From the NCBI GenBank assembly GCA_024234165.1, contig JACKOP010000005.1, forward strand, positions 123,409 to 187,408: a stretch of 64,000 nucleotides of DNA, read 5' to 3'. Positions 37,997-64,000 of this stretch are shown here, piece after piece (positions within the stretch are counted from its first letter, which is position 1; each line of letters begins with the position of its first letter). The stretch is from Pseudomonadales bacterium. Its GTDB lineage: Bacteria > Pseudomonadota > Gammaproteobacteria > Pseudomonadales > UBA5518. The notes beneath the pieces were generated by a model that saw nothing but the letters and a program-made list of their open reading frames with translations, did no database searches and was not told the origin of the DNA. The position numbers were made by a program, and so were the translations under genes.

Positions 37997-38091
37997 GAAA
38001 GAGTGGTTTCGTTAACTAGTCAGGCCATACTTGCATACATTTTGCCTGTTTTCTATGCATGTTTTGGTGACCTGCATAGAAAGCCGCATAT

Positions 38092-39189: not shown

Positions 39190-39515
39190 TCATCGTCTTC
39201 CGGCAGGGCGGCATCGAGATCGACATCGACGCCGCCGACCAGCGCCTGGATGCGTTGGACGAGGCCGGCATCCACAGCTTGCAGCCGCTCGGGATGGCGA
39301 GTGATGTCGGCGGCCAGGAAGCCGAGGAACTGACCGAGCACCGGGTCGTCACCGTCCGATGCTTCGACGCGCGTCAGCACCACCTCTCCGCTGGGGCGAA
39401 TGGTGTAGTGGATCTTGTCGCGCTTGCCCAGCTTGAGGGCACGACGCACGGTTTCCGGCACCGTGGTCTGGTAGCGATCGGTGAGTGTGGATTCGACTTC
39501 GAGGGTCGCAGCCAT
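39186..39515 (-). CDS. prlF: Type II antitoxin PrlF (SohA), AbrB/SpoVT-type
   Basis: ATG at 39513-39515: MAATLEVESTLTDRYQTTVPETVRRALKLGKRDKIHYTIRPSGEVVL. Its stop overlaps the yhaV start. Confidence 0.85.
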   Translation of the reverse strand: MAATLEVESTLTDRYQTTVPETVRRALKLGKRDKIHYTIRPSGEVVLTRVEASDGDDPVLGQFLGFLAADITRHPERLQAVDAGLVQRIQALVGGVDVDLDAALPEDDE

Positions 39516-39553
39516 GGCAGTCTCCTGCGGATCTGGGTTGATGCCTGAATAGT

Positions 39554-39589
39554 AATGCAGTCGCATTGTCTTGCCAATGCAGTTGCATT
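39554..39589. promoter_or_regulatory. Twin palindromic operators upstream of prlF-yhaV
   Basis: AATGCAGTCGCATT (39554-39567) and AATGCAGTTGCATT (39576-39589) are 22 bp apart centre to centre. They sit 39-74 bp upstream of the prlF ATG in an AT-rich stretch. Confidence 0.5.
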
Positions 39590-39647
39590 GCCTTCAAGAA
39601 CACCCGGCTCGAATAGGTGTAAATGGGTGTGCTTTTGGTCGGGACGA

Positions 39648-39667
39648 CGGACGCGGGTTCGATTCCC
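39648..39667 (+). other. tmRNA/tRNA T-arm-like fragment (probable old att scar)
   Basis: CGGACGCGGGTTCGATTCCC matches the ssrA 3' region as I recall it from E. coli (CGGACGCGGGTTCAACTCCCGCC...) at 18 of 20 positions. It breaks off inside the T-stem, with no acceptor end or CCA. Confidence 0.4.
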
Positions 39668-40091
39668 AAACCGGAATTGAACTGGCGCCGGAAAGCAGGC
39701 GAGGTTGAGTGGCCTTTCCGGGCACCAATCAGCGCGAAAAACCCGCTTGATCGTCCACGGCTGAGGCCGTACCGGCAGACTTTTCGATCCGGTTCGCACA
39801 AGTTCGCAGCAGCCCGCAGCGCTTCGATTGCGTACTTTCAGATAGTCGTTTGATGCGGGGTACCATCCCACCAGGGTCAGGGTGTCGCGATCAGCTTCTG
39901 CCACGGAGGCGCCCGTGCAGGCGTCGAATCCGGATTGCCAAGTCTTGCAAATTCTCCCGCATTATAGTGATGCCGGCTGCCCGAGATCGCTCTGCAAGGA
40001 AATGGCGCGGACGACACCTTCGCACCGGTGGGACGCCGTGAATGCATCCCTGCAGGCTCGAGTGCCGCATCCCTGCGGCACACCAGACCCT

Positions 40092-49613: not shown

Positions 49614-50666
49614 TCATACGCCGGAGCCGCTCGTGCCGCGACGCATCGCCGACGGCACGCATCCGGTCCAGGATTTGAAGGCGCGCGAAAAGGTGACGGT
49701 GTCGCTGAAACCCAGCCGGGCAGCGATCTCACCGAGCGGCAACGAACGATCCCGCAGCAGGTCGAGCGCGAGCTCGTGCCGGCAGCGCTCCTTCAGTTGC
49801 CTGAGCGTGGTGCCTTCCTCGTTCAGTCGGCGCTTCAGCGTCGCACTGCTCAAACCCAACTGGCGGGCGATCCAGTTGGCATCGGGCGGCCGGTTCCCCT
49901 GCGCCAGTGCCGTGGCGAGCAGCTTGCGCACCCACGCGGAAGCGGGCGCAACGCTCGAGCGCCCGGCGCCGAGGTCGAACGGAAACGCCGTGCGCAGCAG
50001 TTCGTCGAGCTCGGCAGCACTGCGCACCACCGGCAACGCCAGATAGCGCGCGGGAAAGCTGAACGTGTTGTCTTGCGCGCCGTACTCGATGTCCCACGGC
50101 AGCAGCCACGATACGAGCTGCTGGTCCAGCACCGGACCGTAGCAGACCTTCACCGCAAGCGGCTCCAGATCCTTGCCCACCAACCAGCCGCCCAGCCGTG
50201 CAAAGCTCGACAACCCCGTGAAGACGCCGAAGATCATGTGCTCATCGCCGGGTATGTAGGCGGTATGCAGGCAGAACTCCGCAGTCGAACGCTCGGTACG
50301 CAACGACAGCGCGCCGGCTCCACCGTCGAACAGGGCATAGAAGTCGATTGCACGTTCGATGGCCTGGCCGAGCGTCGCGCTGCTGATCATGCAGTAGCAC
50401 ATCATGCGAAACTCGGACGGCCCCATCGGATGACGGCCGACGCGGCGCGCTTCGTTGCGCTCGAGCCGGTTCAGGCATTCACCGTAGACCGCCACGAACT
50501 GCGCATGGGAAACGTGCAGGCTGCTGCATGCTTTCAGATCAAGGATGCCTGCCCGGCGCAGGATCTCGTCCACATCGCCGCCGAGCTGGCCCACGACACG
50601 CAGCACGCTGCGCAGCAGCAGGCCTGCGGGCGGTGTGTGCGCTGATGCGAGCGGATTTCCGTTCAT
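49614..50666 (-). CDS. AraC-family transcriptional regulator
   Basis: The C-terminal double HTH ...LGLSSATLKRRLNEEGTTLRQLKERCRHELALDLLRDRSLPLGEIAARLGFSDTVTFSRAFKSWTG. It lies 30 nt upstream of, and is co-oriented with, the ATPase gene. Confidence 0.85.
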   Translation of the reverse strand: MNGNPLASAHTPPAGLLLRSVLRVVGQLGGDVDEILRRAGILDLKACSSLHVSHAQFVAVYGECLNRLERNEARRVGRHPMGPSEFRMMCYCMISSATLGQAIERAIDFYALFDGGAGALSLRTERSTAEFCLHTAYIPGDEHMIFGVFTGLSSFARLGGWLVGKDLEPLAVKVCYGPVLDQQLVSWLLPWDIEYGAQDNTFSFPARYLALPVVRSAAELDELLRTAFPFDLGAGRSSVAPASAWVRKLLATALAQGNRPPDANWIARQLGLSSATLKRRLNEEGTTLRQLKERCRHELALDLLRDRSLPLGEIAARLGFSDTVTFSRAFKSWTGCVPSAMRRGTSGSGV

Positions 50667-50746
50667 GGGCTGAATGGTGCGGCTCGATGCCGCCCATTCT
50701 AGCCCAGCCGGCAGCGACTGCTACGGCCGGGCTACCGGACCAGGAC

Positions 50747-53224
50747 TCACCTCAACACCCCATCGCTCAACAGACGCACGAATTCCTGGTCATCCATGTT
50801 CAGGATCTCTCGGCAGATCTGTTCCGTGTGTTCTCCGAACGATGGTCCGTAGATCTGAGTGACGGGGGTGCGCGACAACTTCAGCGGCCAACCGAAATAC
50901 AGGCTGTTGCCATAGCCCGGCTTGTCCAGTACGGAGTAGAACCCTCTCTCCCTGACGTGCGGATCAGATTCGACGATGTCACGGTCGTTCTTGACGACGC
51001 CGGCCGGAATGCCGGCATCCTGCAACAACTGCATCAACTCTTCGGCCGCATGCCCCACGGTCCACCGAGAGATTTGCCCATCCAGCTCATCCTCGTTTTC
51101 CTTCCTTCCTGTCAACGAATCGTATCGGGCATGGCGAACCCACTCGGGGTTCCCCATCACGCGTTTCAACGCATCCCATTGCCGGTCGGTCAATACGGCA
51201 ATGGCGCACCAGCGATTTTCGCCGCGGCACGCATACACGCCATGTGGTGCGGCATCGGGTGAACGATTTCCCTGCTTGCCCCTGACGCAACCATTTGCCG
51301 AGTATTCGAGCAACGGCAGGGCAAGCAGCGTCGTTGCCACTTCGTGCTGCGACAGATCGATGTACTGCCCCTCGCCGGTCCTCTCACGGTGATCAAGCGC
51401 AGAAAGAATCGCCAAGGTGCTGAACCAGGGCGCTGTTGCATCGGAGTAGGCGTTGTGTGGTGGTACCGAGATGCGATCGGGCCAACCCGTGAGGTAGGTA
51501 AACCCCCCGCGCGCCTGCTGCTCGACACCGAAACCGATCATCTCTGCCAGTGGTCCGGTTTGCCCGAAGCTGCTGGAGCTGATCATGATGATCGATGGGT
51601 TGATCTTGCGCAGTTCTTCGTAATCGAGCCCGAAGCTCTTCATGACACCCACGCTGAAATTCTCGGCAACGACATCCGCCCAGCTCACAAGTTTCCTGGC
51701 GATCTCCCGTCCTTCCTCCTTCGACAGGTCAAGATTCATCGCCCGTTTGCTGCTGTTCATCGCGATGGCAAAGTAACCGCCGTCCGCCGTACTCACGTTG
51801 TTCTTGTACGGCCCTACGGTTCGCAGGTTATCGATTGCTGCAAGGCTCTCGACCTTGATGACATCCGCGCCGAAATCTGCCAGGTACGTCGTGCTCAACG
51901 GGCCGGCAAGAATCCTGGAGAAATCCAGCACCTTCAGGCCTGCCAGCGCAGCGTGGATCCTTGCTCCCGATGCCGCATCGCCAGGCAATCGAGTTCGTGC
52001 GTTTCCAGCGTCAGCACGACGTGGCATCGAAGCGATTTCAAGGCGAATCTCGGCCGAGTGCTCTCCAGCTCGAGGGGCAGCCTTCGGCACAGCGCACGGG
52101 GTCGCACCAAGCTTGAACGGCGCCCCCGGGTGGAGCAGGCTGCGACCGAGTGCGGGATACCCGACATCAAGCAGGAAATTCCTGGATATCAGTTGTGGAT
52201 CCCGGGCAATGTCCGCAATGCTGTTGACCGGAGCCAATGCAAAGCGCCTTCTCAGCGCCTCGTCTGCAAGTTCCTGCTTGCTGTGTTTCGCAAAGAAGGC
52301 CAGAAAGGCTGCTTCGATACCTTCCAGTTCCTCCGGCGTGATCTTGAGAACGTCGAGTCGGCTCCAGTCGATGTCCACCAGATGCCCTGCATCACCCTTT
52401 TCGTCCATCCAGTCAACGAGCCGCTTGACCAGCCGGCCCAGCACGCCGCCGTAGACGCTGAACATCACTTCACCGTCCAGGCAGGGCCAGACCACCAACG
52501 GCGCAACCTTGGGTGAAAACCGCTGGCGGTTTCCGCTGCGCTCGGTAACCATCCGGGTGTGGTACCACCATGAAGGCGATGCCATGCCCAGTCGCATCAC
52601 CGCTTCATGCGCCGATACGTCGACATGCTGTCCTTCGTCGATCCGGTTTCTCGCCTGCAGGGCCAGCAAGGTACCGACCGCTCCATGCAGTCCGGCCTGG
52701 AGCCAGACCTGGTCGACCCCCATGCGCAAGGGCGCACGGTCCATGTATCCGCACTGGTTCATGATTCCGCCCAGCGCCCAGAGAACCAGGTCCGAGGCAT
52801 GCAGGTCGCGGAAAGGTCCCGTCTGCCCGAACGGCGTGATCGAGACGAAGATGAGGCCGGGGTTCAGCTCGCTCAAGGCCTCGTATCCGAGCCCCAGGCC
52901 GTCGAGATACCCGACTGGATACGATTCAATGAAAAAGTCGGCTGTTGCAACCAGTTGCTTCAGTTCTTCACGTCCGGACGGCGACTCGATATCGAGGGTG
53001 ATGCTTCTTTTTCCCGCATTGAGCGAATACCACAGGAGGCTCTTTTCAAGAGCCCGGGTGTCCTGCACCAAAGGCGCCGATTGACGCACGATATCGCCCG
53101 CCGGCGGTTCGACCTTGATGATATCGGCCCCGAGATCAGCCAGAAGCCGTCCGCAAAACATCCCGGTCTGGCCGCTGAGATCGAGGCCACGGTACGGGAG
53201 CAGGGGGCCTGTTCTGTTATGCAT
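50747..53224 (-). CDS. Tandem-fused family III CoA-transferase (two CaiB/BaiF/Frc-like modules in one 825-aa polypeptide)
   Basis: Module 1 has YRGLDLSGQTGMFCGRLLADLGADIIKVEPP and HASDLVLWALGG. Module 2 has LKVLDFSRILAGPLSTTYLADFGADVIKVES and AYSDATAPW. The ATG at 53222-53224 gives MHNRTGPLLPY. Confidence 0.85.
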   Translation of the reverse strand: MHNRTGPLLPYRGLDLSGQTGMFCGRLLADLGADIIKVEPPAGDIVRQSAPLVQDTRALEKSLLWYSLNAGKRSITLDIESPSGREELKQLVATADFFIESYPVGYLDGLGLGYEALSELNPGLIFVSITPFGQTGPFRDLHASDLVLWALGGIMNQCGYMDRAPLRMGVDQVWLQAGLHGAVGTLLALQARNRIDEGQHVDVSAHEAVMRLGMASPSWWYHTRMVTERSGNRQRFSPKVAPLVVWPCLDGEVMFSVYGGVLGRLVKRLVDWMDEKGDAGHLVDIDWSRLDVLKITPEELEGIEAAFLAFFAKHSKQELADEALRRRFALAPVNSIADIARDPQLISRNFLLDVGYPALGRSLLHPGAPFKLGATPCAVPKAAPRAGEHSAEIRLEIASMPRRADAGNARTRLPGDAASGARIHAALAGLKVLDFSRILAGPLSTTYLADFGADVIKVESLAAIDNLRTVGPYKNNVSTADGGYFAIAMNSSKRAMNLDLSKEEGREIARKLVSWADVVAENFSVGVMKSFGLDYEELRKINPSIIMISSSSFGQTGPLAEMIGFGVEQQARGGFTYLTGWPDRISVPPHNAYSDATAPWFSTLAILSALDHRERTGEGQYIDLSQHEVATTLLALPLLEYSANGCVRGKQGNRSPDAAPHGVYACRGENRWCAIAVLTDRQWDALKRVMGNPEWVRHARYDSLTGRKENEDELDGQISRWTVGHAAEELMQLLQDAGIPAGVVKNDRDIVESDPHVRERGFYSVLDKPGYGNSLYFGWPLKLSRTPVTQIYGPSFGEHTEQICREILNMDDQEFVRLLSDGVLR

Positions 53225-53340
53225 CGATGTCTCAAACCTCTTTTCTCGAACGCCGGAGACCGATTTCCTGGCTCTGACAATCCCCGCCGCCTCGACAGGC
53301 AAACAAGAACGATCCGGGTGCAAAGCGCAGCTTAGCAGAC

Positions 53341-53356
53341 TATTGCAATGACAATA
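53341..53356. promoter_or_regulatory. 16-bp palindrome TATTG-N6-CAATA upstream of the CoA-transferase gene
   Basis: TATTGCAATGACAATA lies 117 nt upstream of the start at 53224, in an AT-rich spacer. It has the same half-sites and spacing as the site at 58982-58997. Confidence 0.35.
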
Positions 53357-53474
53357 TATTTTTCATGTTTATCGATTTGACGAGACTGCACCGGCAGATC
53401 CACCCGGCCGACGACACAATCATCTTGGAACTACCGTTCGGCAAGAAAACGCCGAGCTGGCAGGGGGCACACGA

Positions 53475-54368
53475 CTAGTTCATCCACTTGCCGTTGCTTT
53501 GCATGGTGACGGAACGGCAGGTCGCCACCAGTTTTCGTGCATAACCCTGAATTTCTTCGGTTCCCAGCGAATCTCCGAAACCGGTCAGATAGATCACGTA
53601 ACTCACTTCGCCATGTGGATTGAAAATCGGTGCCGACAACATCCGCACCGGATAACGGCTTCCGCTCTTCGGGTACAGGAGGTAGTGGTCTTCAATGCCG
53701 AGTTTGTCGATGAGACTGGTCAGGCGCTCCCTGTCGCTGGGCGAGGACATTGAAAACGACACCTCTCGCACGGCTTCTCCGAGCTGGATCGGCAAGGCGG
53801 TTTCAAGATAGACAGCGTAGCCGTCCTTCCTGATGACGGAGAGGAGTTCATCGTACCTGGCTCGTTCGGCCTTGGTCACCTTGTGAGGAAGTTTCTTCAA
53901 CCATTGCTCGATCTTGTCGTTACTCGACCACGCCATGAACAAGGCTCCCAGGGGCGGGATCAATGGAACATGCTGGCCCACGCCCATGCTTGGCGCAGTG
54001 GAACGGTAACGACCATATCGCGCCAACCCCACCATGTCCTTTCCCATGCGTGCTGTCACCATCGCATCGAGATTGTTTTCTGCCGAGAGCTTGGCCGCTT
54101 CCTCTCTGGCTATGCCAATGGCCGGATGCCGCTCCAGCGCGGCCTGGCCGGTGGCAACCAGTGCCGGCCCCAGCGAGTAGGTCTTGTGGGTCGGATGCCT
54201 TACGAGATACCCGCTTTCCGTCAACGTATTCAGGATCGCATGGCACGACGCGATATTCACTTCAAGCCGCTGCACCAGCTCCGAGAGAGTGAATTCATGA
54301 CCGGGCTGATTCGCAATGAAATTGAGTATATCGATTGCGCGTGTTGCCGATAGCGCAGGTCTAGCCAT
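53475..54368 (-). CDS. IclR-family transcriptional regulator
   Basis: The N-terminal wHTH ATRAIDILNFIANQPGHEFTLSELVQRLEVNIASCHAILNTLTESGYLV, and a C-terminal IclR effector-domain length. Confidence 0.9.
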   Translation of the reverse strand: MARPALSATRAIDILNFIANQPGHEFTLSELVQRLEVNIASCHAILNTLTESGYLVRHPTHKTYSLGPALVATGQAALERHPAIGIAREEAAKLSAENNLDAMVTARMGKDMVGLARYGRYRSTAPSMGVGQHVPLIPPLGALFMAWSSNDKIEQWLKKLPHKVTKAERARYDELLSVIRKDGYAVYLETALPIQLGEAVREVSFSMSSPSDRERLTSLIDKLGIEDHYLLYPKSGSRYPVRMLSAPIFNPHGEVSYVIYLTGFGDSLGTEEIQGYARKLVATCRSVTMQSNGKWMN

Positions 54369-54374
54369 GCTTCT

Positions 54375-55670
54375 TCACTTCCCATGTACACGGAGCGGAG
54401 CAGGCAGATCCAGCAGCAGCACAAGACCGATTGCCAGCAATACCAATGTACCGCCAACAAGAAATGCGATCTGGTAACTGCCCAGTCGATCGTAGACGAA
54501 TGCGCCCAGCAGCGGACCAAGCGCCGGGCCCAGCACGGTAAAAACCGCAGCGATGCCCATGATTCCACCGAGAAACCGTGTTCCGAACAGCCCACCTATG
54601 ATGCGTGGATTTTGCGGGATGACCCCTCCGTAGGCAAATCCGAACATGACCGCAAAAAGATACAGCATCCATGCGTGACTTATGGCGGGCAAGATGAAAA
54701 GCGCCAGCGAAGCCAACAGCATGCTGTAAGTCAGCGCACGCCTCGTCCCGATCCGATCAGAGGCAGCCCCCATGACAAGGCGGCCAAGTGCATTGGATGC
54801 AGCTGCAACACCGAGGGCCAGCGCAGCGACGGATTCGGCAATTCCGACGTCCGTTGCATAGGGGACCATATGAATCTGGGCCATCATGATGCCGGAGAAC
54901 ATCAGGATCACCGACAGGTTGTAGATCCAGAACGCCGGACTGCACAACGCCTGCTTGACCGTGTGGTTTCGAGCGCCGCTCGCAGCCACATGCGCTGCGT
55001 GAACGGATGTGGCGCCGACAGCCTGTTCGCCAGACAGCATGGCCTCTTCGCCGAAGGCTTGCAGCCCCATCTCTGAGGGATCCTTCTTCATCAGGAGCCC
55101 CATGGCCAGGATCACACAGGCCGCACCCAACCCGGCGATCTCGAAAGTTTCGCGCCAACCGTATGCTGTTATCCAATGCTGCGTCAGCGGCGAAAGGATC
55201 ATGCCTCCCAGGCCTCCGGCGGAAAAAACGAGGCCAAGCGCAAGACCACGGCGCTGTACGAACCAGCGCGGGATCGTGGCCATCAACGGCACAATCAGGA
55301 AGGCAACGCCCAGCCCACCCAGGATGCTGTAGGCAAGGTAGAACTGTCGCAGATTCTCTACCTTGGCCGCACAAAAAAGACCGAGGCCAAGCAACAAGCC
55401 CCCAGCCAGGCTGGTGACACGTGGACCGAAGCGATCAACCGCAAATCCCGCCACGATGGACATGGCACCCACGATCATCATGAACAGGCCGAATGCACCC
55501 GTTACCTCGCTGCGAAGCCAGCCGAATTGCTGGGCCAGCGGCTTCACGAACACGCCGAAACAGATGGTTGGCCACAGAGCGATGGCATAGATGAGCGCGG
55601 CGGCCAGAACGATGACCCAGCCGTAAAAGAACGCTGCCTTGTCTCCTGGTGGGACGGAAGAGGTATTCAT
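54375..55670 (-). CDS. MFS transporter, oxalate/formate-antiporter (OFA) / monocarboxylate-type
   Basis: 12 TM segments with a central loop. FYGWVIVLAAALIYAI...FGVFVKPL..QFGW and the overall layout recall OFA/MCT-like MFS. The substrate is unknown. Confidence 0.8.
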   Translation of the reverse strand: MNTSSVPPGDKAAFFYGWVIVLAAALIYAIALWPTICFGVFVKPLAQQFGWLRSEVTGAFGLFMMIVGAMSIVAGFAVDRFGPRVTSLAGGLLLGLGLFCAAKVENLRQFYLAYSILGGLGVAFLIVPLMATIPRWFVQRRGLALGLVFSAGGLGGMILSPLTQHWITAYGWRETFEIAGLGAACVILAMGLLMKKDPSEMGLQAFGEEAMLSGEQAVGATSVHAAHVAASGARNHTVKQALCSPAFWIYNLSVILMFSGIMMAQIHMVPYATDVGIAESVAALALGVAAASNALGRLVMGAASDRIGTRRALTYSMLLASLALFILPAISHAWMLYLFAVMFGFAYGGVIPQNPRIIGGLFGTRFLGGIMGIAAVFTVLGPALGPLLGAFVYDRLGSYQIAFLVGGTLVLLAIGLVLLLDLPAPLRVHGK

Positions 55671-55671
55671 C

Positions 55672-57387
55672 TCAAGCGAAGAAGGCAGCCGTCATTTCGT
55701 TCAGTCCGGCGCCTTCGGGACTGACCATGAGTTCGATGAGCGTGGGCTTGCGCAAGCCGATCATCTCCTCCAGCGCCGGCTTGATCGCCGCTGCGTCGCT
55801 GATGCGCCTGGCAATCAGCCCGAAGCCCTCGGCCAGCGCGGCAAAGCTCAGCTCGCCAATGTCGTACACGGCACAATCGGCTCCATCCATCGGGGCGCCG
55901 ACCGCCTGCCCGTAGTAGCCGAAGAGGCCTCTCATCGAGCCGAAACCACCATTGTTGAAGACCACGAACACAATCGGTACCTGGTACCTGGCGGCGCTCC
56001 ACAGGGCCTGGATGCAAAACATGGCACCACCATCGCCAAGCAACGCGACGATCGCCTGGTCGGGACGCCCCATGGCGACTCCAAGTGCAGCCGGCACGCC
56101 CCATCCCAGGGAATCGACGCAGGTGAAGTAACTGCCTGGCTCACGAAATCCGATCACCTTGGGCAATTGTCCGTAGAACGATGCCAACTCGTCGACCACA
56201 GCAGCATTCCCGGGCAGCGCGGCAGCGATCTCCCTGAACGCTGCGCCCCAATGGACGGGCACCAATCCCGGATCGGCATTCAGGCAGCTCTCGACAAAGT
56301 CCTTTCGCTGCTGATGCTCTTCCCTCAACTGCGCCATTCGCTCGACATGCCTTGCCTTGTCAAGCAGCGGCTCGACGGCTTTGCGCAACTGGGCCAGTGC
56401 GAGCTTCGGATTCGCGAGCAAGGCGACTTCCGTCGGACAAAACCTGGCAAGTGCACAGGCATCGAGATCGATCTGGATGACACGCGTTGCCGGCGGCACG
56501 ACCGGCGAATCTGCCTGGTCGTCAAACTTGAATACATCGCTACCGATTTCCAGCAAGACATCGGCAGATGTCGCCACACGGCGAATGGCATGGCTCTGCT
56601 GGAAGAGCAGCCCACGATACAGGGGATGATCACTGGGGAAGATCAGTTTGGTTTCATTGCCCGTGTACACAGGCGCAGCCAACACTTCGGCCAATGCGAC
56701 CAGCTCGGACACCGCATCCGTATCAGCCACGGCGTGACCGGCAACTATCACCGGATTTCTTGCGGAGGCCAGCAGCCCGGCCACATGCTCCAGTGACCCG
56801 GCGGACAGGCCGGTATCCATTGTTACGCGCCGACCATGCGCAGGAAATGACTGGTGCGCCACGACCTGGCATTGCACTCCGTGCGGGATGGAGAGCACAA
56901 CCGGACCTGTTGGCGCGGTGCACGCTTCCTTGATTGCCCGATTCACGGCCACCGCCACGTCGTTTGCGCGCGTCACGCGCCAGCGTGCCTTGGTGACCTG
57001 GCTCACCATGGGGCGCACGTCGACATCCATGTAACGCTCGTTCCAGTCGAGCGAGGCATCCGTCTGTCCGACGATGACGAGAATCCGGCTTCCGGCGGCG
57101 TAAGCATTGTGCAGGTTTCCCATCGTGTTCGACAGGCCGCCGGTCGAATGCACGACTACGACGGCGAGCCTTCCGGTTGCCCGCGAATAGCCGTCTGCCA
57201 TACCCAGCGCAGCAGATTCGTGCGTGGCATGCACGAAGGTCATGTCAGGCGCTCGTCTCAATGCGTGCAACAGCGGTACGTTCGTGATGCCGCAAACACC
57301 GAAAACGCGATCGACGCCCTCTTCGCGAAGCATGCTCCACACGGCATCGGCACAACTCATCTCTACGGTCGTTTCTCCGTCATTCAT
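55672..57387 (-). CDS. Thiamine-diphosphate-dependent enzyme, benzoylformate-decarboxylase / acetolactate-synthase-like
   Basis: The N-terminal PYR domain VDRVFGVCGITNVPLLHAL...HESAALGMADGYSR. The ThDP-binding motif is LLGDGGAMFCIQALWSAARYQVPIVFVVFNNGGFG. 571 aa. Confidence 0.85.
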   Translation of the reverse strand: MNDGETTVEMSCADAVWSMLREEGVDRVFGVCGITNVPLLHALRRAPDMTFVHATHESAALGMADGYSRATGRLAVVVVHSTGGLSNTMGNLHNAYAAGSRILVIVGQTDASLDWNERYMDVDVRPMVSQVTKARWRVTRANDVAVAVNRAIKEACTAPTGPVVLSIPHGVQCQVVAHQSFPAHGRRVTMDTGLSAGSLEHVAGLLASARNPVIVAGHAVADTDAVSELVALAEVLAAPVYTGNETKLIFPSDHPLYRGLLFQQSHAIRRVATSADVLLEIGSDVFKFDDQADSPVVPPATRVIQIDLDACALARFCPTEVALLANPKLALAQLRKAVEPLLDKARHVERMAQLREEHQQRKDFVESCLNADPGLVPVHWGAAFREIAAALPGNAAVVDELASFYGQLPKVIGFREPGSYFTCVDSLGWGVPAALGVAMGRPDQAIVALLGDGGAMFCIQALWSAARYQVPIVFVVFNNGGFGSMRGLFGYYGQAVGAPMDGADCAVYDIGELSFAALAEGFGLIARRISDAAAIKPALEEMIGLRKPTLIELMVSPEGAGLNEMTAAFFA

Positions 57388-57453
57388 GCCTGCGTCCTCG
57401 CTCCCGGTCTGCTGCGTCTCAAGGAGTCAAATCCAGCTTTGCTCCGCATGTCA

Positions 57454-58911
57454 TCACGGTTGCGAATGGGCAAAGCTGGCACCACGTTCCACTACCTCGC
57501 GCTCGAAATTCTCGATGACCACCCAGCGCACCATGCGACGAAACAGCTCGATGCCATCATGCGGATAGCCCTCGGCCTCATACGTCGCGCAGCCCAGCGT
57601 GGTAAGACGCTGCGCACCCTGCAGGGCACATCGGTCACGGATTCGTTCCTTGAGGGATTCCGGATAGACGCCGATGGTCTGGGTATCGATGGTCACCCAC
57701 TGGAGGGCATCCTCGATCCTGTTCACCGGCACCAGGTTGACGACCCGGCCATTCAATTCGTCCTTGAACGGAACCGGTTCGCTTCGTCGTGAAATGACGA
57801 CACCGCCCTCGGATTGCTCGACACCGATGACACCGTAACGGGCGTCATGGCGTATCCCATCGATATCAGCGCGGAGTTGAGCGGGAAAATCGGGGCTGCA
57901 GGAACTGAACTGGGATGGCAGCGCCTGGATCGCCGCATGCACGAGCGCACCCAAGCGCTCTAGCCGCTCCACCCCCACCGCATCCACGCCACTTTCGACA
58001 TAGACCACCCGGGCATTGAGACATGCAGCCTGGTTCAACAGGCCTACGTCCTTGGCGATCTGTTCCGCAACATAATTCATGGACTCCTGCGACTCGAAAG
58101 CCTCGCTGCCGATCATCGAACCGCTGACCTTGGGATCGAGCGCGATGAGATCCAGCCCCGGCACGAGGTACTTGCGGACCTGGCGCATCGAGCTCGGACC
58201 GCCCCAGGCCAGGATCTTCTCGATGTTGCGTGGCGTGTACAGATGCTCCTCGACACCCGCATCCCCTCCTTTCCAGTAGCCCACCGTGTAGTGCCTGGTA
58301 ATCGGATGCGTGGGCGCCATCTCGATCATGGTCAAGCCCAGGGCCGTCGCAGTGAACGGGTCGTTGGATGGGAACTTGACGATGTTGTCGCACCGCAGGA
58401 TGGATCCGTGCATCAGACCGAAGGCAGCGGCTGCAGGGGAGTTGCCCGGGTTGAGGTGCACCGTCCGAGCGCCGAATGCGCGCACCTGGACTTCCCGATC
58501 GGCAAACTGGCGGCTCTCCCAGCCATCGAGGCATTCGATGCCCATCATCTTGTCGATCGCCTCCTCTATGGAGGCTCGATTGAAGGCAACGCTCAGTCCG
58601 TTGTACATCTGAGCCAGGATCTCCCTGGACTGGACGTTGGCTGCAAGATACATCTCCATGGCCTGACGAAGATGCGCATTCGTGTCCAGCCGGAGCCGCG
58701 CCCCGAGTTCTTCGAGATAGTCGAGGACATCCGCGACGGACAGCCGGTACATGTCCTCCATCTCGGCCGGATTGCGCAAGACGATCCGGTCGATGAACCG
58801 CTTTACATCAGGCGTCCGGAAGGACACGCCACCTCGCCGGCCCTGGAAAGGCACCATGTGATCGCGTATGACCTCGCCGCGAACAATCAGGGGGATGTCG
58901 TACTCTGTCAC
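57454..58911 (-). CDS. LuxC-family acyl-CoA/acyl-protein reductase paralog 1
   Basis: I prefer the GTG at 58909-58911 (AAGGAG lies 9 nt upstream). It gives MTEYDIPLIVRGEVI, parallel to paralog 2. VHLNPGNSPAAAAFGLMHGSILRCDNIVKFPSNDPFTATAL..HPITR..VGYW, ILAWGG, the active-site-type NQAAC, and GYPHDGIELFRRMVRW all align by eye with LuxC as I remember it. Confidence 0.8.
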   Translation of the reverse strand: MTEYDIPLIVRGEVIRDHMVPFQGRRGGVSFRTPDVKRFIDRIVLRNPAEMEDMYRLSVADVLDYLEELGARLRLDTNAHLRQAMEMYLAANVQSREILAQMYNGLSVAFNRASIEEAIDKMMGIECLDGWESRQFADREVQVRAFGARTVHLNPGNSPAAAAFGLMHGSILRCDNIVKFPSNDPFTATALGLTMIEMAPTHPITRHYTVGYWKGGDAGVEEHLYTPRNIEKILAWGGPSSMRQVRKYLVPGLDLIALDPKVSGSMIGSEAFESQESMNYVAEQIAKDVGLLNQAACLNARVVYVESGVDAVGVERLERLGALVHAAIQALPSQFSSCSPDFPAQLRADIDGIRHDARYGVIGVEQSEGGVVISRRSEPVPFKDELNGRVVNLVPVNRIEDALQWVTIDTQTIGVYPESLKERIRDRCALQGAQRLTTLGCATYEAEGYPHDGIELFRRMVRWVVIENFEREVVERGASFAHSQP

Positions 58912-58981
58912 GCTCGCATGCTCCTTGATCAAGCCTGAGAAATGGTTGCAAGCATCTCACGCTTACATCTATAGAAAACTT

Positions 58982-58997
58982 TATTGCTATATCAATA
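58982..58997. promoter_or_regulatory. 16-bp palindrome TATTG-N6-CAATA in the divergent luxC1 / luxE1 promoter region
   Basis: TATTGCTATATCAATA is palindromic at 14 of 16 positions. It lies in the 236-bp AT-rich spacer between 58911 and 59148. Confidence 0.35.
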
Positions 58998-59147
58998 CAT
59001 GGTATGGTCGCAACCTGATAGCGTCAAGTCACCCCATCAGGGGTCATGCACAACATGTTCACCCGCTGACGCAGCGTAACGGATCGGATACATCGGCATA
59101 CCAAAGCTCGTTTCCTGTCACGCGGCCCTGGAGTTGAAGCGACAATC

Positions 59148-60584
59148 ATGGCTACGCAAGTCGATCCGCAAACCGCTCGCGCCTATAAAACGCGGTTTCT
59201 CGAAAACCCCGCGAATTTCCTTGATTACCCGATCGACGTCGTCTTTTCGCTAGACCCGGCAGAGCTGGACGCAATGCATCTTCGACATGCGAAGGACAGG
59301 TTCGCCTTCGGCGTCGAACACATTGCCATGGTGCGCCAACTGGCAACGCAGAACGAGGTCTCCGGCATCGACTCCTTCGACGACCTCCTGCCTCTGCTGT
59401 ACAGCCAGGACACCTTCAAGAGCTATCCTCAATCCTGGCTCGAGACCGGAGATTTCAACCGCCTGAACAGATGGCTCGGGAAGCTGTGTGCCATCGATCT
59501 GCGCAACGTCGACGCATCGTCCTGCTCTCTCATCGAAGACTGGATAAAGGTTCTGGCCAGCGAATCCGGCGTCGACCTTCTCATTTCGGCTGGCGCCGAC
59601 GGGAAGGCCGCATTCCTGCCACGCACCCGTGACGAGTGGGGAGTGATGCATCGCGTCACCCTCTGGAACTTCCAGTCATCCATGACGGGAAGGAACGGAG
59701 AGTCCCTTGCCTTGCGGGTCGGGGTAGACAAGGCGCCACTGATACATCCCGGTGCGCGCGGCGGCGCACGCAGCTGGGGACGCTTCCTCGACTTCTACGA
59801 ACAGACCTTCGGTACCGGTCTTGTCGATGCGCCGCTCGGTTACAACGACTCCGATCTGCTCAGCCTTGCCGGTCGCATACGCGAAGCCAGCAAGAAGGGC
59901 GAAGCGGGTTCGCTGCAGATCAATCCGGAGTTGCTGGCGCGCAAGGATGAAATTGCCCGCATCAATGCGGACAAGCCACGGCGCATGGAAGCCCTGATGC
60001 AACGCCTGGGCAACGACTACCGAGGTCGCCGCATCATCTGTTACAGCAGCATGCAGATGCTCCACGATCTGGCAACGCGCCTGCGCGACCAGCACATCAC
60101 GGGGGCCTTCGCTCCCGACTCGTTTTTTTTCTGCGGAGGCGGATTCGCCGATGGCAAGGAGCCAGCCAACTGGAAACAGCAGGCAGCCGCGGTGCTGGGC
60201 ATACCAGAAACCTCGATTCACGTAGGCTACGGCATGCAGGAAGGTCTTTGGGCAACGAATCAGTGTCCGGCAGGCAGGTTCCACGTCCCGGTCACCGTCA
60301 TCCCGTTCGTTCTCGACGAAACGAACAATCAGCCGCTGCCCCGTACCGGCAGGCAGACAGGAAGGTTCGCCTTCTTCGACCTGCTGCCCACTACCTCGTG
60401 GGGCGGTTACATCAGCAGTGACCGGGTCACCATTTCATGGGATCGACACTGCGACTGTGGTCGCATGGGCGCCTTTCTCGACGCAGACATCAGCAAGGTA
60501 CCCGAAAGGCAGGACGACAAGATCGGCTGTGCCGGCACGTCCGGGGCTCTGGAAGACGCCACCGATTTCCTGCTCCGTACGTGA
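59148..60584 (+). CDS. LuxE-like acyl-protein synthetase paralog 1 (degenerate phosphate-binding motif, Cys-containing C-terminal tail)
   Basis: Collinear with paralog 2 (LLPLLYSQDTFKSY, FCGGGF, CDCGR). The SSGTSG position instead reads SAGADG (59586-59603). The C-terminal tail is ...ERQDDKIGCAGTSGALEDATDFLLRT, with the Cys codon at 60528-60530. Confidence 0.65.
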   Translation: MATQVDPQTARAYKTRFLENPANFLDYPIDVVFSLDPAELDAMHLRHAKDRFAFGVEHIAMVRQLATQNEVSGIDSFDDLLPLLYSQDTFKSYPQSWLETGDFNRLNRWLGKLCAIDLRNVDASSCSLIEDWIKVLASESGVDLLISAGADGKAAFLPRTRDEWGVMHRVTLWNFQSSMTGRNGESLALRVGVDKAPLIHPGARGGARSWGRFLDFYEQTFGTGLVDAPLGYNDSDLLSLAGRIREASKKGEAGSLQINPELLARKDEIARINADKPRRMEALMQRLGNDYRGRRIICYSSMQMLHDLATRLRDQHITGAFAPDSFFFCGGGFADGKEPANWKQQAAAVLGIPETSIHVGYGMQEGLWATNQCPAGRFHVPVTVIPFVLDETNNQPLPRTGRQTGRFAFFDLLPTTSWGGYISSDRVTISWDRHCDCGRMGAFLDADISKVPERQDDKIGCAGTSGALEDATDFLLRT

Positions 60585-60608
60585 TCAATAAATTCCGCGG
60601 GTATCGAC

Positions 60609-62069
60609 ATGACCAAGTACCGGATCCCCATCATTGCACGAGGCCAGGTCATCGATGACTACGAAGTCATCTGTCACGGCCGGTATGGCGCCGATTTCGC
60701 GTGCCCCGACCCGAACAAGTACCTGTCAAGAATCCTGTTGCCTTCACGCCGCGCAATGGAACCTCTCTACCAACTGTCGTTGGACGAGGTCGTCAGCTAC
60801 TTGCTGGAACTGGGAAAGCATCTGAAGACAGCGACCAATCCGCACCTGCAATGGGCTCTTGAACTTGCCAGGGCTTTCAACGATGTGCCACCGCACATGG
60901 TCCGGAACGCCATGGACAGTTTTCAGGATCGATTCCTGTCTCGCTCGACTCTCGAAGGGATGATCGATACGGTAGGACGCGAGCATCTCGACGGTTGGCA
61001 ACGTCACGAACGTGACTCGGGACGCATCTCCTACATCCGTGCCTTCGGGGTGCCCACGGCACACGTGATTGCCGGCAATGGCCCATCTGTCGCCATGATG
61101 ACGCTGGTGCGCAACGCTCTCATCCGCGGCTACGCCATCGTAAAGATCCCCTCGAACGAACTGGGCACCGCCGTTGCCCTCGCACGCACGGCAATCGACA
61201 TGGCTCCTGACCACCCTCTGACCAAGGCATTCAGTGCTGTTTACTGGCGCGGGGGCGACGACGCTTTCGAATCCCGCCTGTACCACCCCAGGAATGTCGA
61301 GCGCATCGTCGCATGGGGCGGCTTCGCATCGGTCACGCATATCGCCAAATACGTACGCCCCGGCATCGATCTCGTGACCTTCGACCCGAAGATCAGTCGT
61401 TCCGTACTGGGACCAGGCACGTTCGCCTCGGATGCCAGCATGAGTGAAGCGGCCATGCGCCTGGCCGACGATGTCGGCAATGGCAACCAGAACGGGTGCA
61501 CCAATTGCCGGGTGTCCTACGCCATAAACGATGGAAGCTCTGATTTCCTGGACAAGGTGAAGCGTTTCGGCCAGATGGTGTTCGATGAAATCCAGCGACT
61601 GCCTCACGAGGTGAGCAGCCCCGCCATTCACATGGACCCGGGGTTTCAGTCGAAAGTAGCGGCTTTGGCGATGCTCGACGACGATTATCACGTCGTCGGT
61701 GGTGACAAACGCGGAGGCGTGATCGTCTCGATCGAAGGCGACCAGGTGGATTTTGCCGACGAACTCAAGTATCGGACACTGAACATCGTCCCCGTGAAGG
61801 ATTACGACGCCATGCTTCGCTTTGTCACGCGCGACGTACAGACCGTAGGCGTGTATCCAGAAAGCGTGCGCGATGAGCTTCGCACGGTCCTGGCTCTCCA
61901 TGGCGTACAGCGAATCACATCCCTCGGGTTCATGCGCGAATACGACGCGGCAATTGATCCACACGATGGGAACGAAGCCTTGCGAAAGATGTGTACCTGG
62001 GTCGTTGCCGAGGATTGCATCACGAACCACGCCCCCGCACTCTGGCGCAAGGCAGGCAGCACGGGCTGA
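60609..62069 (+). CDS. LuxC-family acyl-CoA/acyl-protein reductase paralog 2
   Basis: MTKYRIPIIARGQVI, AHVIAGNGPSVAMMTLVRNALIRGYAIVKIPSNELGTAVAL..HPLTK..AVYW, IVAWGG, NQNGC, DPHDGNEALRKMCTWV. Confidence 0.8.
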   Translation: MTKYRIPIIARGQVIDDYEVICHGRYGADFACPDPNKYLSRILLPSRRAMEPLYQLSLDEVVSYLLELGKHLKTATNPHLQWALELARAFNDVPPHMVRNAMDSFQDRFLSRSTLEGMIDTVGREHLDGWQRHERDSGRISYIRAFGVPTAHVIAGNGPSVAMMTLVRNALIRGYAIVKIPSNELGTAVALARTAIDMAPDHPLTKAFSAVYWRGGDDAFESRLYHPRNVERIVAWGGFASVTHIAKYVRPGIDLVTFDPKISRSVLGPGTFASDASMSEAAMRLADDVGNGNQNGCTNCRVSYAINDGSSDFLDKVKRFGQMVFDEIQRLPHEVSSPAIHMDPGFQSKVAALAMLDDDYHVVGGDKRGGVIVSIEGDQVDFADELKYRTLNIVPVKDYDAMLRFVTRDVQTVGVYPESVRDELRTVLALHGVQRITSLGFMREYDAAIDPHDGNEALRKMCTWVVAEDCITNHAPALWRKAGSTG

Positions 62070-62076
62070 AAGATCG

Positions 62077-63387
62077 ATGAACACGAACATCTTCGCTCAT
62101 GTGCACGCCCCAGGCGATCTCTTGCTGCATCCACAGGTCGATCCCGGGTTCCTGATTCGCCGCGACGTCGAGGAATTCCAGCTGACAGCCGCCAGGCTCC
62201 GGCTGCAAAGCCATGCCGAACGCATCCCCGCCGTGAGCGAATTGCTGGCCGGCAAGGACCCCATGTCCTTCACCCGCATCGACGATTTCATTGCCGTGCT
62301 CTTCGAGGAAGACATCTACAAAAGCTACGACCCGACGTGGATCGACGACGGCGAATTCGACAAGATGACCCGCTGGCTGGATCGACTCAGCACACACGAT
62401 CTTTCCAGGGTCGAGACCCATGACTGTGACAGTCTTACCGCGTGGTGTCGGCGCCTCGACGAACAGGCGGGCATCTTCATCTGCCATTCGTCGGGAACCA
62501 GCGGCACCCTGAGCTTCGTTCCTCGTTCGCAGCGCGATCGCGATCTGGCGGTCGATCATGTGGTGTGGTACAGCCATCCGTTGTTCAAGCCGAACCAACG
62601 CAATGACGTAACGTATTTTTGCATGCAGGCACGGCGTCAGTACCGCATCACTCAACCCATCTATGATGGACTGGAGGAGCGGTTCCAGATCAATCCAGTG
62701 GAAGCACTGACCGATTTCCTCAGTCCAGAGTTCTTCATCACCCAAGGCAAGCTACGCAAGGCGGCCTCAGCCGGCACGATGGACGAGTGCCTGAAAAGAA
62801 ACCTCATCGTGGCAGCCCATCGCGAGGAAGTGGAACGCTACCAGCAGAACCTGCCGCACCTCATCAAGCGCTGGACCGAAAATCTCATTGAGAACTACCG
62901 CGGGCGGCAAATTTTTTTCCAGGGCTCATTCGACAAGGCCTGGCAGATCACTCAGCTCTTCAGCAAGATGGGTGTCACCTGTGCCTTCGCCCCTGAGTCC
63001 AGGTTTTCCCTGTTTGGCGGAGTCAAGGACGGCAGTCAGCTACCGGATGACTGGCAGGATCAGTTCCGGCGCGTAACCGGGGTGTCCGAAGACAATCTGA
63101 TCTTCGGTTGGGGCATGTCCGAGATGACGGGAGCACTATTGCGCTGCTCCCATGGCATGTTTCATTTCATGATCCAGATCATCCCCTTCCTGCTCGAACC
63201 GGGAACTCGCGTCCCGCTTCCGCGCCAGGGAACCCAGACCGGCCAGTTGGCCATTCTCGAACTCGTCTCGGAAGATTGCTGGGGCGGCATGATCAGCGGC
63301 GACCGTGGCACCATCCACTGGGACAAGACCTGTGCCTGCGGGCGTGACGGCCCCTTGCTCGACCCGCAAAGCATCGGACGCCTGTAG
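62077..63387 (+). CDS. LuxE-like acyl-protein synthetase / acyl-adenylate-forming enzyme paralog 2 (intact SSGTSG, no C-terminal Cys tail)
   Basis: IAVLFEEDIYKSY, FICHSSGTSGTLSFVPRS (motif at 62488-62505; compare LuxE F-T-S-S-G-T-x-G...VPR), FGGVKDG. It ends ...CACGRDGPLLDPQSIGRL*. Confidence 0.7.
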   Translation: MNTNIFAHVHAPGDLLLHPQVDPGFLIRRDVEEFQLTAARLRLQSHAERIPAVSELLAGKDPMSFTRIDDFIAVLFEEDIYKSYDPTWIDDGEFDKMTRWLDRLSTHDLSRVETHDCDSLTAWCRRLDEQAGIFICHSSGTSGTLSFVPRSQRDRDLAVDHVVWYSHPLFKPNQRNDVTYFCMQARRQYRITQPIYDGLEERFQINPVEALTDFLSPEFFITQGKLRKAASAGTMDECLKRNLIVAAHREEVERYQQNLPHLIKRWTENLIENYRGRQIFFQGSFDKAWQITQLFSKMGVTCAFAPESRFSLFGGVKDGSQLPDDWQDQFRRVTGVSEDNLIFGWGMSEMTGALLRCSHGMFHFMIQIIPFLLEPGTRVPLPRQGTQTGQLAILELVSEDCWGGMISGDRGTIHWDKTCACGRDGPLLDPQSIGRL

Positions 63388-63393
63388 CGCAGA

Positions 63394-64000
63394 TCACACG
63401 GTCAACAGCGGCGCCACGGAAGCTGCGAAGCACTGGATCTGTTCGATGCATTCCTGCGTTGACCGGGAGCGGAAGCGCACCTGGAGATGATTCACTCCCA
63501 TGCTCACCAGTCCTCGCAACGATTCCGCGATTTGCTCGGCATGACCGATCAGCGATCCAGCGGGAAGCTCCCATCCAGGATCGTTGCGACTGGATTCGAT
63601 TATGTGCATCGGCTCAACGATCGTGCCGATATCCAGCCACGAGTCGTTCCTGAACTCGCGGCGCAACTCGCGAATCCGCTGGATCTGCTCATGAAGAGCA
63701 CTTCTCGGTGTCCCTTGCGGCAGCCAACCATCGCCATAGGCCGCAACCCGACGCAGTGCCGCCGGACTCGATCCGCCGATCCACACCGGCGGTCTTGGTT
63801 CCTGTACCGCTCGCGGGCCAATATGCATGCCCGAGAAACTCCAGCAGGAACCCTCGTGGGTGGCAGCCTCTGCTTCGAGACATTGCATCAACGCCTCGAT
63901 TGCTTCGTCGCCCCGCTTGCCTCGTTGCGCGAAGCTGCCCGGACCGTTCAACACGTCGAACTCTTCCGCCACATGCCCGACGCCAACGCCGATGACGAGT
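63394..64000 (-). CDS. Luciferase-like monooxygenase (LLM) family flavin/deazaflavin oxidoreductase, C-terminal part (gene runs off the right edge)
   Basis: The frame is open to the window edge (...LVIGVGVGHVAEEFDVLNGPGSFAQRGKRGDEAIEAL...PVWIGGSSPAALRRVAAYGDGWLP...). This pattern resembles the LLM subclass annotated as F420-dependent. Convergent with luxE2, with a 6-nt gap. Confidence 0.7.
   Translation of the reverse strand, partial: LVIGVGVGHVAEEFDVLNGPGSFAQRGKRGDEAIEALMQCLEAEAATHEGSCWSFSGMHIGPRAVQEPRPPVWIGGSSPAALRRVAAYGDGWLPQGTPRSALHEQIQRIRELRREFRNDSWLDIGTIVEPMHIIESSRNDPGWELPAGSLIGHAEQIAESLRGLVSMGVNHLQVRFRSRSTQECIEQIQCFAASVAPLLTV

Follow-up and report, generated by a model that had tools for sequence, protein, structure and literature searches.

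The DNA studied here is a 64,000-nucleotide stretch from a Pseudomonadales bacterium (assembly GCA_024234165.1, contig JACKOP010000005.1, positions 123,409 to 187,408), referred to below as the window, and the subject is a group of genes near its right-hand end which encode relatives of LuxC and LuxE. Three of them follow one another on the plus strand: E1 (59148..60584, 478 aa), a LuxE-like putative pseudo-synthetase with a carrier tail; LuxC2 (60609..62069, 486 aa), a LuxC-type acyl-thioester reductase with Cys297 as its catalytic cysteine (PF05893, 9e-40); and E2 (62077..63387, 436 aa), a tail-less LuxE-like protein and the putative adenylating subunit. The spacers, 24 nt between E1 and LuxC2 and 7 nt between LuxC2 and E2, are tight and fit co-expression of the three genes. 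A second LuxC-type reductase, LuxC1 (57454..58911, minus strand, catalytic Cys297, PF05893 3e-42), lies divergently to E1 and has 485 aa when counted from its GTG start, its longest open reading frame (ORF) having 492 aa. On the other side, E2 converges across a gap of 6 nt on the gene of a luciferase-like monooxygenase (LLM)-class oxidoreductase. An earlier note, made from the sequence alone, had given these ORFs, both spacers and the convergent gap, and the coordinates were confirmed on the ORF map. The region between LuxC1 and E1 has as its sole feature a 13-nt imperfect palindrome (58939-58958), which is uninformative. A scan for promoters and terminators gave counts no higher than in shuffled sequence, and an Rfam scan of positions 50000-64000 found no RNA family.

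Both reductases were recognised without difficulty as LuxC-type (PF05893, cd07080), as the earlier note had proposed. LuxC1 and LuxC2 score 145 and 137 bits against PF05893 (cutoff 21 bits), the alignments running from profile position 3 to 401 of 401, and their only matches in the PDB are to LuxC of Photobacterium phosphoreum (7xc6_A; 4e-20 and 1.3e-24, respectively). The cysteine of NQAAC297 in LuxC1 aligns to chain index 285 of 7xc6_A, which is Cys296 of P. phosphoreum LuxC, the corresponding motif of LuxC2 is NQNGC297, and the catalytic cysteine is kept in 74 of 75 LuxC homologs. Of the motif blocks ascribed to both proteins, the NQxxC cysteine is indeed common to the two, but DPFTA is found in LuxC1 only, LuxC2 having NELGTA. 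The two proteins are true paralogs, 40% identical (3e-115). Against NF052251, the NCBIfam equivalog for LuxC of lux operons, they reach 112.5 and 113.4 bits, and the cutoff is 750. LuxC1 and LuxC2 are members of the PF05893 family and not orthologs of the LuxC of bioluminescence; with the lux equivalog cutoff missed and luxAB and luxD absent, the description of the locus as a non-lux system built from LuxC and LuxE homologs is upheld.

The relationship of E1 and E2 to LuxE is seen at the level of profiles. Neither protein has a match in Pfam or NCBIfam, and PF04443, the LuxE family, is silent even at E<=10; a precomputed PF04443 match exists in a few distant family members only (P0085, P0110, P0144 and others). 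Two profiles of the family, A1 and A2, nevertheless match LuxE (7xc6_E) at 9.5e-12 and 4.4e-12, with PaaK ligases next at 7e-5 and 2e-3, the ranking having been repeated with a second alignment of E-family homologs. The LuxE-type identity proposed in the earlier note is thus borne out as profile-level homology and not as membership of PF04443, while the paralogy of the adjoining synthetase-like genes is real, E1 and E2 being 29% identical (6e-64). AlphaFold (AF2) models have a mean confidence (predicted local distance difference test, pLDDT) of 92.8 for E2 and 82.8 for E1, and by Foldseek both fall into the PaaK branch of the superfamily of adenylate-forming (ANL) enzymes (E~1e-12). The end of the family profile aligns to about residue 299 of the 401-residue ClxA, a PaaK-type ligase, and E2 terminates at this point. 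E1 and E2 are therefore ANL N-domains without the C-terminal subdomain, an architecture they share with LuxE, which also lacks that subdomain (PMC9157457). The tail of E1 is modelled at low pLDDT (57-66), which is consistent with a mobile arm comparable to the flexible C-terminal tail of LuxE, unresolved in the LuxCE cryo-EM structure (PMC9157457). A Cys...His...Cys-x-Cys set (C357, H363, C419 and C421 in E2) is invariant or nearly so throughout the family and also aligns with ClxA; these residues might bind a structural metal.

In LuxE, the K238A mutant is dead, R355 is important, and the acyl group is carried by Cys364 in the flexible C-terminal motif 358-TRxxKGCxLS-367 (PMC9157457). The conserved GGGxK lysine of the E family aligns with LuxE K238 (GGGWK) in HMM alignments, and in P0085, which is a PF04443 member, a tail cysteine lies 9 residues past the aligned arginine, the same spacing as from R355 to C364. 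Neither E1 nor E2 alone has the full set of LuxE features. E2 has the P-loop (SSGTSG, residues 138-143), Lys317 in the position of K238 and Arg435 in the position of R355, but its last residue is 436, one past Arg435, so that there is no carrier tail and no carrier cysteine. In E1 the P-loop is degenerate (SAGADG at 147-152, reading S147-A-G-A-D-G-K), the catalytic lysine is replaced by Ala334 and GMSE has become GMQE, but a 28-residue tail is retained, consisting of QDDKIGC461AG and a short helix, with Cys461 placed 11 residues after the Arg/Lys position.

The same division is found in essentially every ortholog of the two proteins. Counted as 90%-identity protein clusters from two database searches, the P-loop and lysine are lost in all 44 E1-type clusters and the tail cysteine is kept in 42 of them. 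The E2-type clusters, near-equal in number at 45, all have the P-loop and all lack the tail, and 44 keep the lysine. Canonical single-copy homologs, designated E', combine the two sets, the lysine and the tail cysteine each being kept in 105 of 106 clusters, the latter within the motif DD[KR]I[TS]C. Orthologs of E1 share 57-96% identity and are under obvious purifying selection, about 140 columns being invariant in 9 sequences; the cysteine of the tail motif DDKIGCAG is invariant in those aligned. Judged by their motifs, E1 and E2 appear to be complementary partial enzymes, not redundant copies, and the earlier view of the duplication as a two-paralog redundancy does not survive, since E1 has no adenylation residues (44 of 44) and E2 no carrier tail (45 of 45).

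The possibility of a hidden tail on E2 was raised by the in-frame stretch following its stop codon, RRSHGQQRRHGSCEALDLFDAFLR, which is faintly tail-like and into which a tblastn alignment crossed the stop. The stop is TAG, which excludes selenocysteine. Nothing is conserved past the stop in ten other loci where E2 ends at this point; in locus L008 the frame continues for 37 residues that are non-homologous and Cys-free, and in L009, where an LLM gene is also convergent, there is a similar segment without a cysteine. The stretch was rejected as a tail, and is a by-product of the C-terminus of the LLM encoded on the opposite strand.

To sample the wider family, 185,579 species genomes were scanned with the P-loop as seed; of the 218 loci obtained, 78 were mapped. 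The commonest arrangement is a pair, E'-LuxC, and a LuxC gene lies beside an E-type gene in 59 of the 78 mapped loci. Such pairs occur in Novosphingobium and other sphingomonads, in many Actinomycetota (including Mycobacterium, Rhodococcus and Streptomyces), in Chloroflexota and Gammaproteobacteria, and in about a dozen metagenome-assembled genomes (MAGs) of Asgard archaea. A profile search of 1.84 billion representative proteins returned 409 clusters at E<=1e-30 and 1039 at E<=1e-10, the roughly 400 at the stricter threshold being defined at 50% identity. The E'-LuxC family is modest in size and phylogenetically broad. Its proteins are named hypothetical in databases, sometimes 'LuxE domain-containing', and one E' homolog is called a 'phenylacetate--CoA ligase family protein'. 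The Asgard MAGs (L018-L026, L036, L038 and L069; Hodarchaeota, Heimdallarchaeota, Hermodarchaeota and Thorarchaeota) encode complete E'-LuxC pairs, with P-loop, lysine and tail cysteine, and these have conserved neighbours of their own.

The order E1-LuxC2-E2 was found in eleven loci from several phyla. Hosts are the gammaproteobacterial MAG L008, Halioglobus including the cultured H. japonicus, Zhongshania borealis, Litorivivens, a Novosphingobium MAG, an Acidobacteria MAG and a Binatia MAG. All genome loci seeded on E2 that had room upstream showed this order, and a metagenome scan seeded with E1 peptides gave seven loci, with the same order in all three that had room downstream. LuxC2 orthologs are 74-86% identical across phyla, and in neighbour-joining trees the E1, E2 and LuxC2 clades are supported by 50, 46 and 45 of 50 replicates, respectively. 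LuxC1 behaves differently. It forms a clade with its L008 counterpart alone (50/50), and the nearest other sequences (47-48%) are the E'-paired LuxC proteins of the Halioglobus and Zhongshania loci. A second LuxC recurs beside the three-gene unit, as do a benzoylformate-decarboxylase (BFD)-like thiamine diphosphate (ThDP)-dependent enzyme, an IclR-family regulator and TonB-dependent receptors. In the Halioglobus, Zhongshania and Litorivivens loci this second LuxC (44-49% identical to LuxC1 of the window in the first two) is accompanied by a complete E' of its own. It has no such partner in the window, L008 or L095, and the window contains no third LuxE-like gene that might serve LuxC1. What is conserved as a unit is E1-LuxC2-E2, and LuxC1 of the window is an orphan in a separate operon.

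Tandem genes in a third arrangement bear on the origin of the split. In a Rhizomicrobium MAG (L072:6523-10780) the order is E'-E'-LuxC with both E' genes intact, and the same is seen in L059 and L085. A locus of this kind is a plausible evolutionary intermediate towards E1 and E2, and the simplest history suggested by the sequences would be duplication of E' followed by reciprocal loss, ie subfunctionalisation.

Several loci have additions of their own. In a Litorivivens MAG (L016:1759-6000) an Amidohydro_2 gene, selA for selenocysteine synthase and selB for the Sec elongation factor are inserted between LuxC2 and E2, and at the positions checked in the E and LuxC genes of this locus there was no replacement of cysteine by selenocysteine (TGA). 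The unit of H. japonicus (L088/L014) is flanked by two CN_hydrolase genes of nitrilase/amidase type, a DUF1214 protein, a sulfotransferase and three short-chain dehydrogenases/reductases (SDRs), and CN_hydrolase occurs in L092 as well; these neighbours may be hints on the substrate class. In L099:3412-5837 a class III aminotransferase and a 408-aa LLM lie between a fused CoA-transferase and E1, and an omega-transaminase beside an acid-to-aldehyde module would fit a route from acid through aldehyde to amine.

LuxC1 is the first gene of a tightly packed minus-strand string, LuxC1-ThDP-MFS-IclR, followed after 151 nt (measured to its longest ORF) by a CoA-transferase. The ThDP-dependent enzyme (55672..57387, minus strand) has three ThDP Pfam domains. 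Its best NCBIfam model is BFD (NF005485), at 337.8 bits and thus below the equivalog cutoff of 493, and its closest solved structure is also BFD (2e-71); orthologs of 54-70% identity adjoin the unit in L008, L010/L092, L015, L016, L017/L096, L095 and L099. The major facilitator superfamily (MFS) transporter (54375..55670, minus strand; MFS_1 1e-47) is of the monocarboxylate or oxalate:formate type, with the L-lactate MFS transporter as its best NCBIfam model (231 bits, cutoff 320). It is kept in L008, and an MFS gene also follows the ThDP gene in L095. The IclR-family regulator (53475..54368, minus strand; HTH_IclR 1e-9 and IclR_C) has homologs of 60-74% identity flanking the unit in L008, L010/L092 and L093. 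The CoA-transferase (50747..53323, minus strand) is a fused tandem enzyme of family III, PF02515 matching in two full-length stretches (1e-189): CoA_transf_3 occurs twice within one ORF of 858 aa (630 bits), for which gene callers give 825-851 aa. Its N-terminal half matches 9fn0_A (4e-56) and its C-terminal half 9fn0_B (6e-84), the two different subunits of benzylsuccinate CoA-transferase (BbsEF), so that a heterodimer appears to be encoded as one chain; all NCBIfam equivalog cutoffs were missed. The fused enzyme is also present in L008 (70%) and L099 (59%).

The Pfam domains confirmed that a ThDP enzyme, a carboxylate-type MFS transporter, a fused CoA-transferase and an IclR regulator adjoin the LuxC and LuxE homologs. 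To call the whole a self-contained module was an overstatement, since the transporter, the regulator and the CoA-transferase are jointly kept only in the nearest relative, L008. The neighbouring operon probably handles the same acid as E1-LuxC2-E2, or a related acid or 2-oxo acid, and there are hints that the compound is an (oxo/di)carboxylate with an aryl or alkyl substituent, imported through a TonB-dependent receptor or the MFS transporter. In the window and L008 the fused CoA-transferase stands in place of E' beside the second LuxC. As LuxC1 has no synthetase partner here, its substrate may be an acyl-CoA that the CoA-transferase makes or consumes, a suggestion drawn from two loci and put forward with low confidence. 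A reading of these genes as an oxalate system (Frc/Oxc/OxlT-like) was not favoured: the best 60 solved-structure matches listed for the ThDP enzyme are headed by BFD and include no oxalyl-CoA decarboxylase, and the CoA-transferase is closest to BbsEF and not to Frc.

The left 45 kb of the window is unremarkable chromosomal core, with genes for PBP1A, PriA, HslU, UbiB, BipA, GlnA, CtpA and AsmA, and, in agreement with the lower GC content noticed earlier, positions 50001-64000 have a GC fraction of 0.596 compared with 0.66-0.68 upstream. A mobile origin of this block finds no support in its gene content, as no integrase or transposase was found in this part of the window or in the 10-kb flank. 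A second lower-GC patch (0.59-0.62) at 34000-40000 contains several small ORFs and, at 36911-37996 on the minus strand, a gene of the Fic/DOC family with Fic_N, Fic and SoFic-like_C domains, and is perhaps a small accessory island. The identical locus is present in the NCBI MAG GCA_024234195.1 and in several metagenomes, and sequence beyond position 64000 could therefore be read (contig L002). The extension for which the earlier note had called completes the LLM at 309 aa; next comes a TonB-dependent receptor on the same strand, and beyond it lie two pyrroloquinoline quinone (PQQ) dehydrogenases, an SDR and another receptor. The absence of luxD, luxAB and luxG from the window also holds for the next 10 kb, which encode neither a luxD-like hydrolase nor a flavin reductase.

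We consider it somewhat better than an even chance (about 55%) that E1-LuxC2-E2 is a three-subunit carboxylic acid reductase of LuxCE type, in which the synthetase is split over two paralogs. E2 would bind ATP and the acid and form an acyl-adenylate by means of its P-loop, Lys317 and Arg435. As E2 has no acceptor cysteine, the acyl group would be taken in trans by Cys461 on the flexible tail of E1, which itself would be unable to adenylate. The tail would then hand the thioester to Cys297 of LuxC2, and LuxC2 would reduce it with NAD(P)H to the aldehyde. The complementary motifs, their strict conservation, the fixed gene order and the homology to LuxE and LuxC can be read from the sequences themselves, and it is from these that we infer a physical complex of E1, E2 and LuxC2, acyl transfer in trans, the reductive direction, the cofactor and the substrate.

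A number of points weigh against this scheme. E1 and E2 go unrecognised as LuxE by both Pfam and NCBIfam, and their grouping as sisters has only 27 of 50 bootstrap replicates in the neighbour-joining analysis. Cys364 of LuxE itself may be loaded in cis or in trans. The acyl-adenylate on E2 could be attacked directly by Cys297 of LuxC2 or by CoA, which would make the E1 tail dispensable. Finally, TonB-dependent receptors, PQQ dehydrogenases, SDRs and a BFD-like decarboxylase make a catabolic-looking setting, one that is unusual for an acid reduction consuming ATP and NADPH and would also fit the oxidation of an aldehyde.

The dispensable tail is the core of an alternative which we think unlikely but which deserves serious weight. 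E2 would be the sole working synthetase, passing the acyl group directly to LuxC2 Cys297, CoA or another thiol, and E1 would be a scaffold or regulatory pseudoenzyme, for instance one that docks E2 to a LuxC2 tetramer, with a tail cysteine that carries no acyl group. Every adenylation residue tested is lost in E1, the beta-hairpin region that contacts LuxC in 7XC6 is kept in both E1 and E2, and LuxC takes acyl-CoA in vitro without LuxE (10.1101/2025.08.11.669332; PMC9157457), all of which speaks for this scheme. The tail is the difficulty. DDKIGCAG is invariant in E1 and the same element is lost from E2 in 45 of 45 clusters, an exact complementarity which is hard to explain if the tail has no function. 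Moreover, PaaK-type ligases form their CoA thioesters by means of the ANL C-terminal subdomain, and E2, which would have to manage any transfer to CoA, lacks it.

The direction of the reaction is the point at issue in a second and more doubtful alternative, in which the E/LuxC modules are oxidative. A 2-oxo acid would be converted to an aldehyde by the BFD-like ThDP enzyme, the aldehyde would become a thioester on the LuxC cysteine, and the acyl group would pass to the E tail, or to CoA in the case of LuxC1, the energy of the bond being kept either in acyl-CoA or in ATP made from AMP and PPi, and not lost to hydrolysis. The setting suits such a route, TonB-dependent receptors, PQQ dehydrogenases, SDRs, a cytochrome P450 and hydrolases being found around the units and LuxC1 adjoining a CoA-transferase. 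So does the order E'-LuxC-ThDP-2-hydroxyacid dehydrogenase in L092, which mirrors the succession of hydroxyacid, oxoacid, aldehyde and acid in the mandelate pathway. LuxC-type aldehyde dehydrogenases (ALDHs) have lost the hydrolytic Glu/Asn, so that the thioester is stabilised and not hydrolysed (PMC12041015), which is also in its favour. However, the only characterised members, LuxC and LuxE, work reductively, the making of ATP from an acyl-protein thioester by an ANL enzyme is without precedent in the LuxE family, and no sequence feature discriminates between the directions. That energy-conserving aldehyde oxidation, ie LuxCE in reverse, is the task of the split unit and also of the widespread E'-LuxC pairs, with those of Asgard archaea among them, seems to us improbable. 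If true, energy would be conserved at the substrate level by a new route, and the E1/E2 split would separate carrier function from nucleotide handling.

The LLM gene at the right-hand end of the window (63394..64000, minus strand) was correctly placed by the earlier note in the bacterial-luciferase superfamily, the window holding the C-terminal 201 codons of a 309-aa protein (Bac_luciferase 2e-23 on the fragment). The earlier proposal that the reductase/synthetase complex feeds its aldehyde to this enzyme as an oxygenase, in the manner of Lux, we regard as a long shot. The LLM lies only 6 nt from the E2 stop, as it also does in L008 and L009. Other LLM subfamilies are represented no more than 10 kb from the unit of H. 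japonicus (L088), immediately before E1 in L099 and near E'-LuxC pairs in about 10 of the 78 mapped loci, which leaves room for a looser association, and rearranged lux operons without luxB do exist (10.1101/2023.02.27.530324). The full-length protein from the identical contig, however, scores 186.4 bits on TIGR03619 (cutoff 166.9; the window fragment alone reaches 110) and 33 bits on the luciferase beta model, for which the cutoff is 500. By these scores it would be an F420-class enzyme, not a LuxA-like one, and the TIGR03619 class typically comprises reductases or dehydrogenases. Its gene converges on E2, is read in the same direction as that of the TonB-dependent receptor upstream of it, and is missing at that position from most three-gene loci, being kept there only in the closest relatives, L008 and L009. 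The tie of the LLM to the E1-LuxC2-E2 unit is thus doubtful, and the aldehyde-to-oxygenase reading is weak. An F420H2-dependent quinone reductase-family gene (PF04075; 46325-46846, plus strand) lies about 17 kb from the LLM gene, and the two together hint that the organism may make or use F420.

Scarcely credible, finally, is the outcome against which the earlier note had warned, that these are ordinary PaaK-type CoA ligases and ordinary ALDHs resembling lux proteins by chance: PaaK-family ligases are the top Foldseek matches (a search in which the recovery of LuxE would probably be limited, only 118 of its residues being resolved in 7XC6; PMC9157457), PF04443 is silent and one E' homolog bears a PaaK-type database name, but the PaaK C-terminal subdomain is absent from E1, E2 and E', the profile puts LuxE seven orders of magnitude before PaaK, and the reductases pass PF05893, match only LuxC in the PDB and belong to a family adjacent to E-type genes in 59 of 78 loci.

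The reading preferred here, a LuxCE-type reductase with a split synthetase, has its closest parallel in LuxCE of P. phosphoreum (7XC6; PMC9157457). Common to both are an ALDH-fold LuxC-type reductase with a single catalytic cysteine, an adjacent PaaK-related adenylating protein which lacks the ANL C-terminal subdomain, and the set of a GGGxK lysine, a downstream arginine and a flexible C-terminal tail with a cysteine, the acyl carrier in LuxE. In the window, however, the synthetase role is divided, with the catalytic residues in E2 and the tail in E1; E1 and E2 are 60-100 residues longer than LuxE and fall outside PF04443; the order is E-C-E and not C...E; luxD, luxAB and luxG are lacking; and both reductases are far from the lux LuxC equivalog (113 bits against 750). 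With BFD-like and BbsEF-like neighbours, the substrate is unlikely to be myristate. The canonical E'-LuxC pairs are made of the same families (30-36% identity to E1/E2 and 40-49% to LuxC1/LuxC2), in the same order of E then C, with the tail DD[KR]I[TS]C[AS]G and similarly catabolic-looking neighbours, but in them a single E' combines the adenylation residues with the tail, and a third gene is lacking. Some rearranged lux operons lack luxB (luxCEDA, luxCAED and luxAxxCE, in Enhygromyxa salina and others; 10.1101/2023.02.27.530324, PMC7671414), and these, too, bring LuxC and LuxE homologs together with one LLM-fold enzyme in taxa that are not luminous. They are set apart because they retain a LuxA-like FMN luciferase and luxD, whereas the LLM here is of the F420-class TIGR03619, convergent and poorly conserved, with no luxD.

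Resemblances to other pathways are less direct. As in the mandelate pathway, an ALDH-superfamily enzyme adjoins a decarboxylase, the ThDP enzyme being nearest to BFD (2e-71), but its score does not reach the equivalog cutoff of BFD, the enzyme in the place of the aldehyde dehydrogenase is of the non-hydrolytic LuxC type and neither a mandelate dehydrogenase nor a racemase is present in the window. The CoA-transferase corresponds half by half to BbsE- and BbsF-type subunits and differs from BbsEF in being one fused polypeptide. Carboxylic acid reductase (CAR) is a single polypeptide composed of an A-domain, a phosphopantetheinyl carrier and an R-domain. Its chemistry is the one proposed here, ie ATP-dependent adenylation, a thioester on a swinging arm and reduction to the aldehyde by NADPH, but its carrier and reductase folds are unrelated, and in the window the arm would be a cysteine on a pseudo-synthetase within a set of three separate subunits. 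The literature searched contained no functional work on the E'-LuxC family and none on a split LuxE, matches for Methylobacterium and Pseudomonas syringae being lux reporter primers. Nor did that literature contain a characterised pathway of this composition, in line with the earlier note, which knew of none.

To our knowledge, no characterised system other than LuxCE reduces free acids by means of a swinging arm consisting of a protein cysteine, and the LuxC/LuxE family is essentially unstudied outside bioluminescence. What appears to be new here, judging from the conserved motifs, is a cross-phylum variant of LuxCE in which the synthetase is split into a catalytic subunit and a carrier-arm pseudoenzyme. 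The analysis also flags the E'-LuxC pairs as a family that annotation pipelines mostly label 'hypothetical'. If the proposal is confirmed, the LuxE tail would be loadable in trans, which bears on the mechanism of LuxE itself, and acyl carrier would be added as a defined job to the functions of pseudoenzymes. The unit would then also be a compact ATP/NADPH-dependent acid-to-aldehyde module for substrates other than fatty acids, and as such of interest for biocatalysis.

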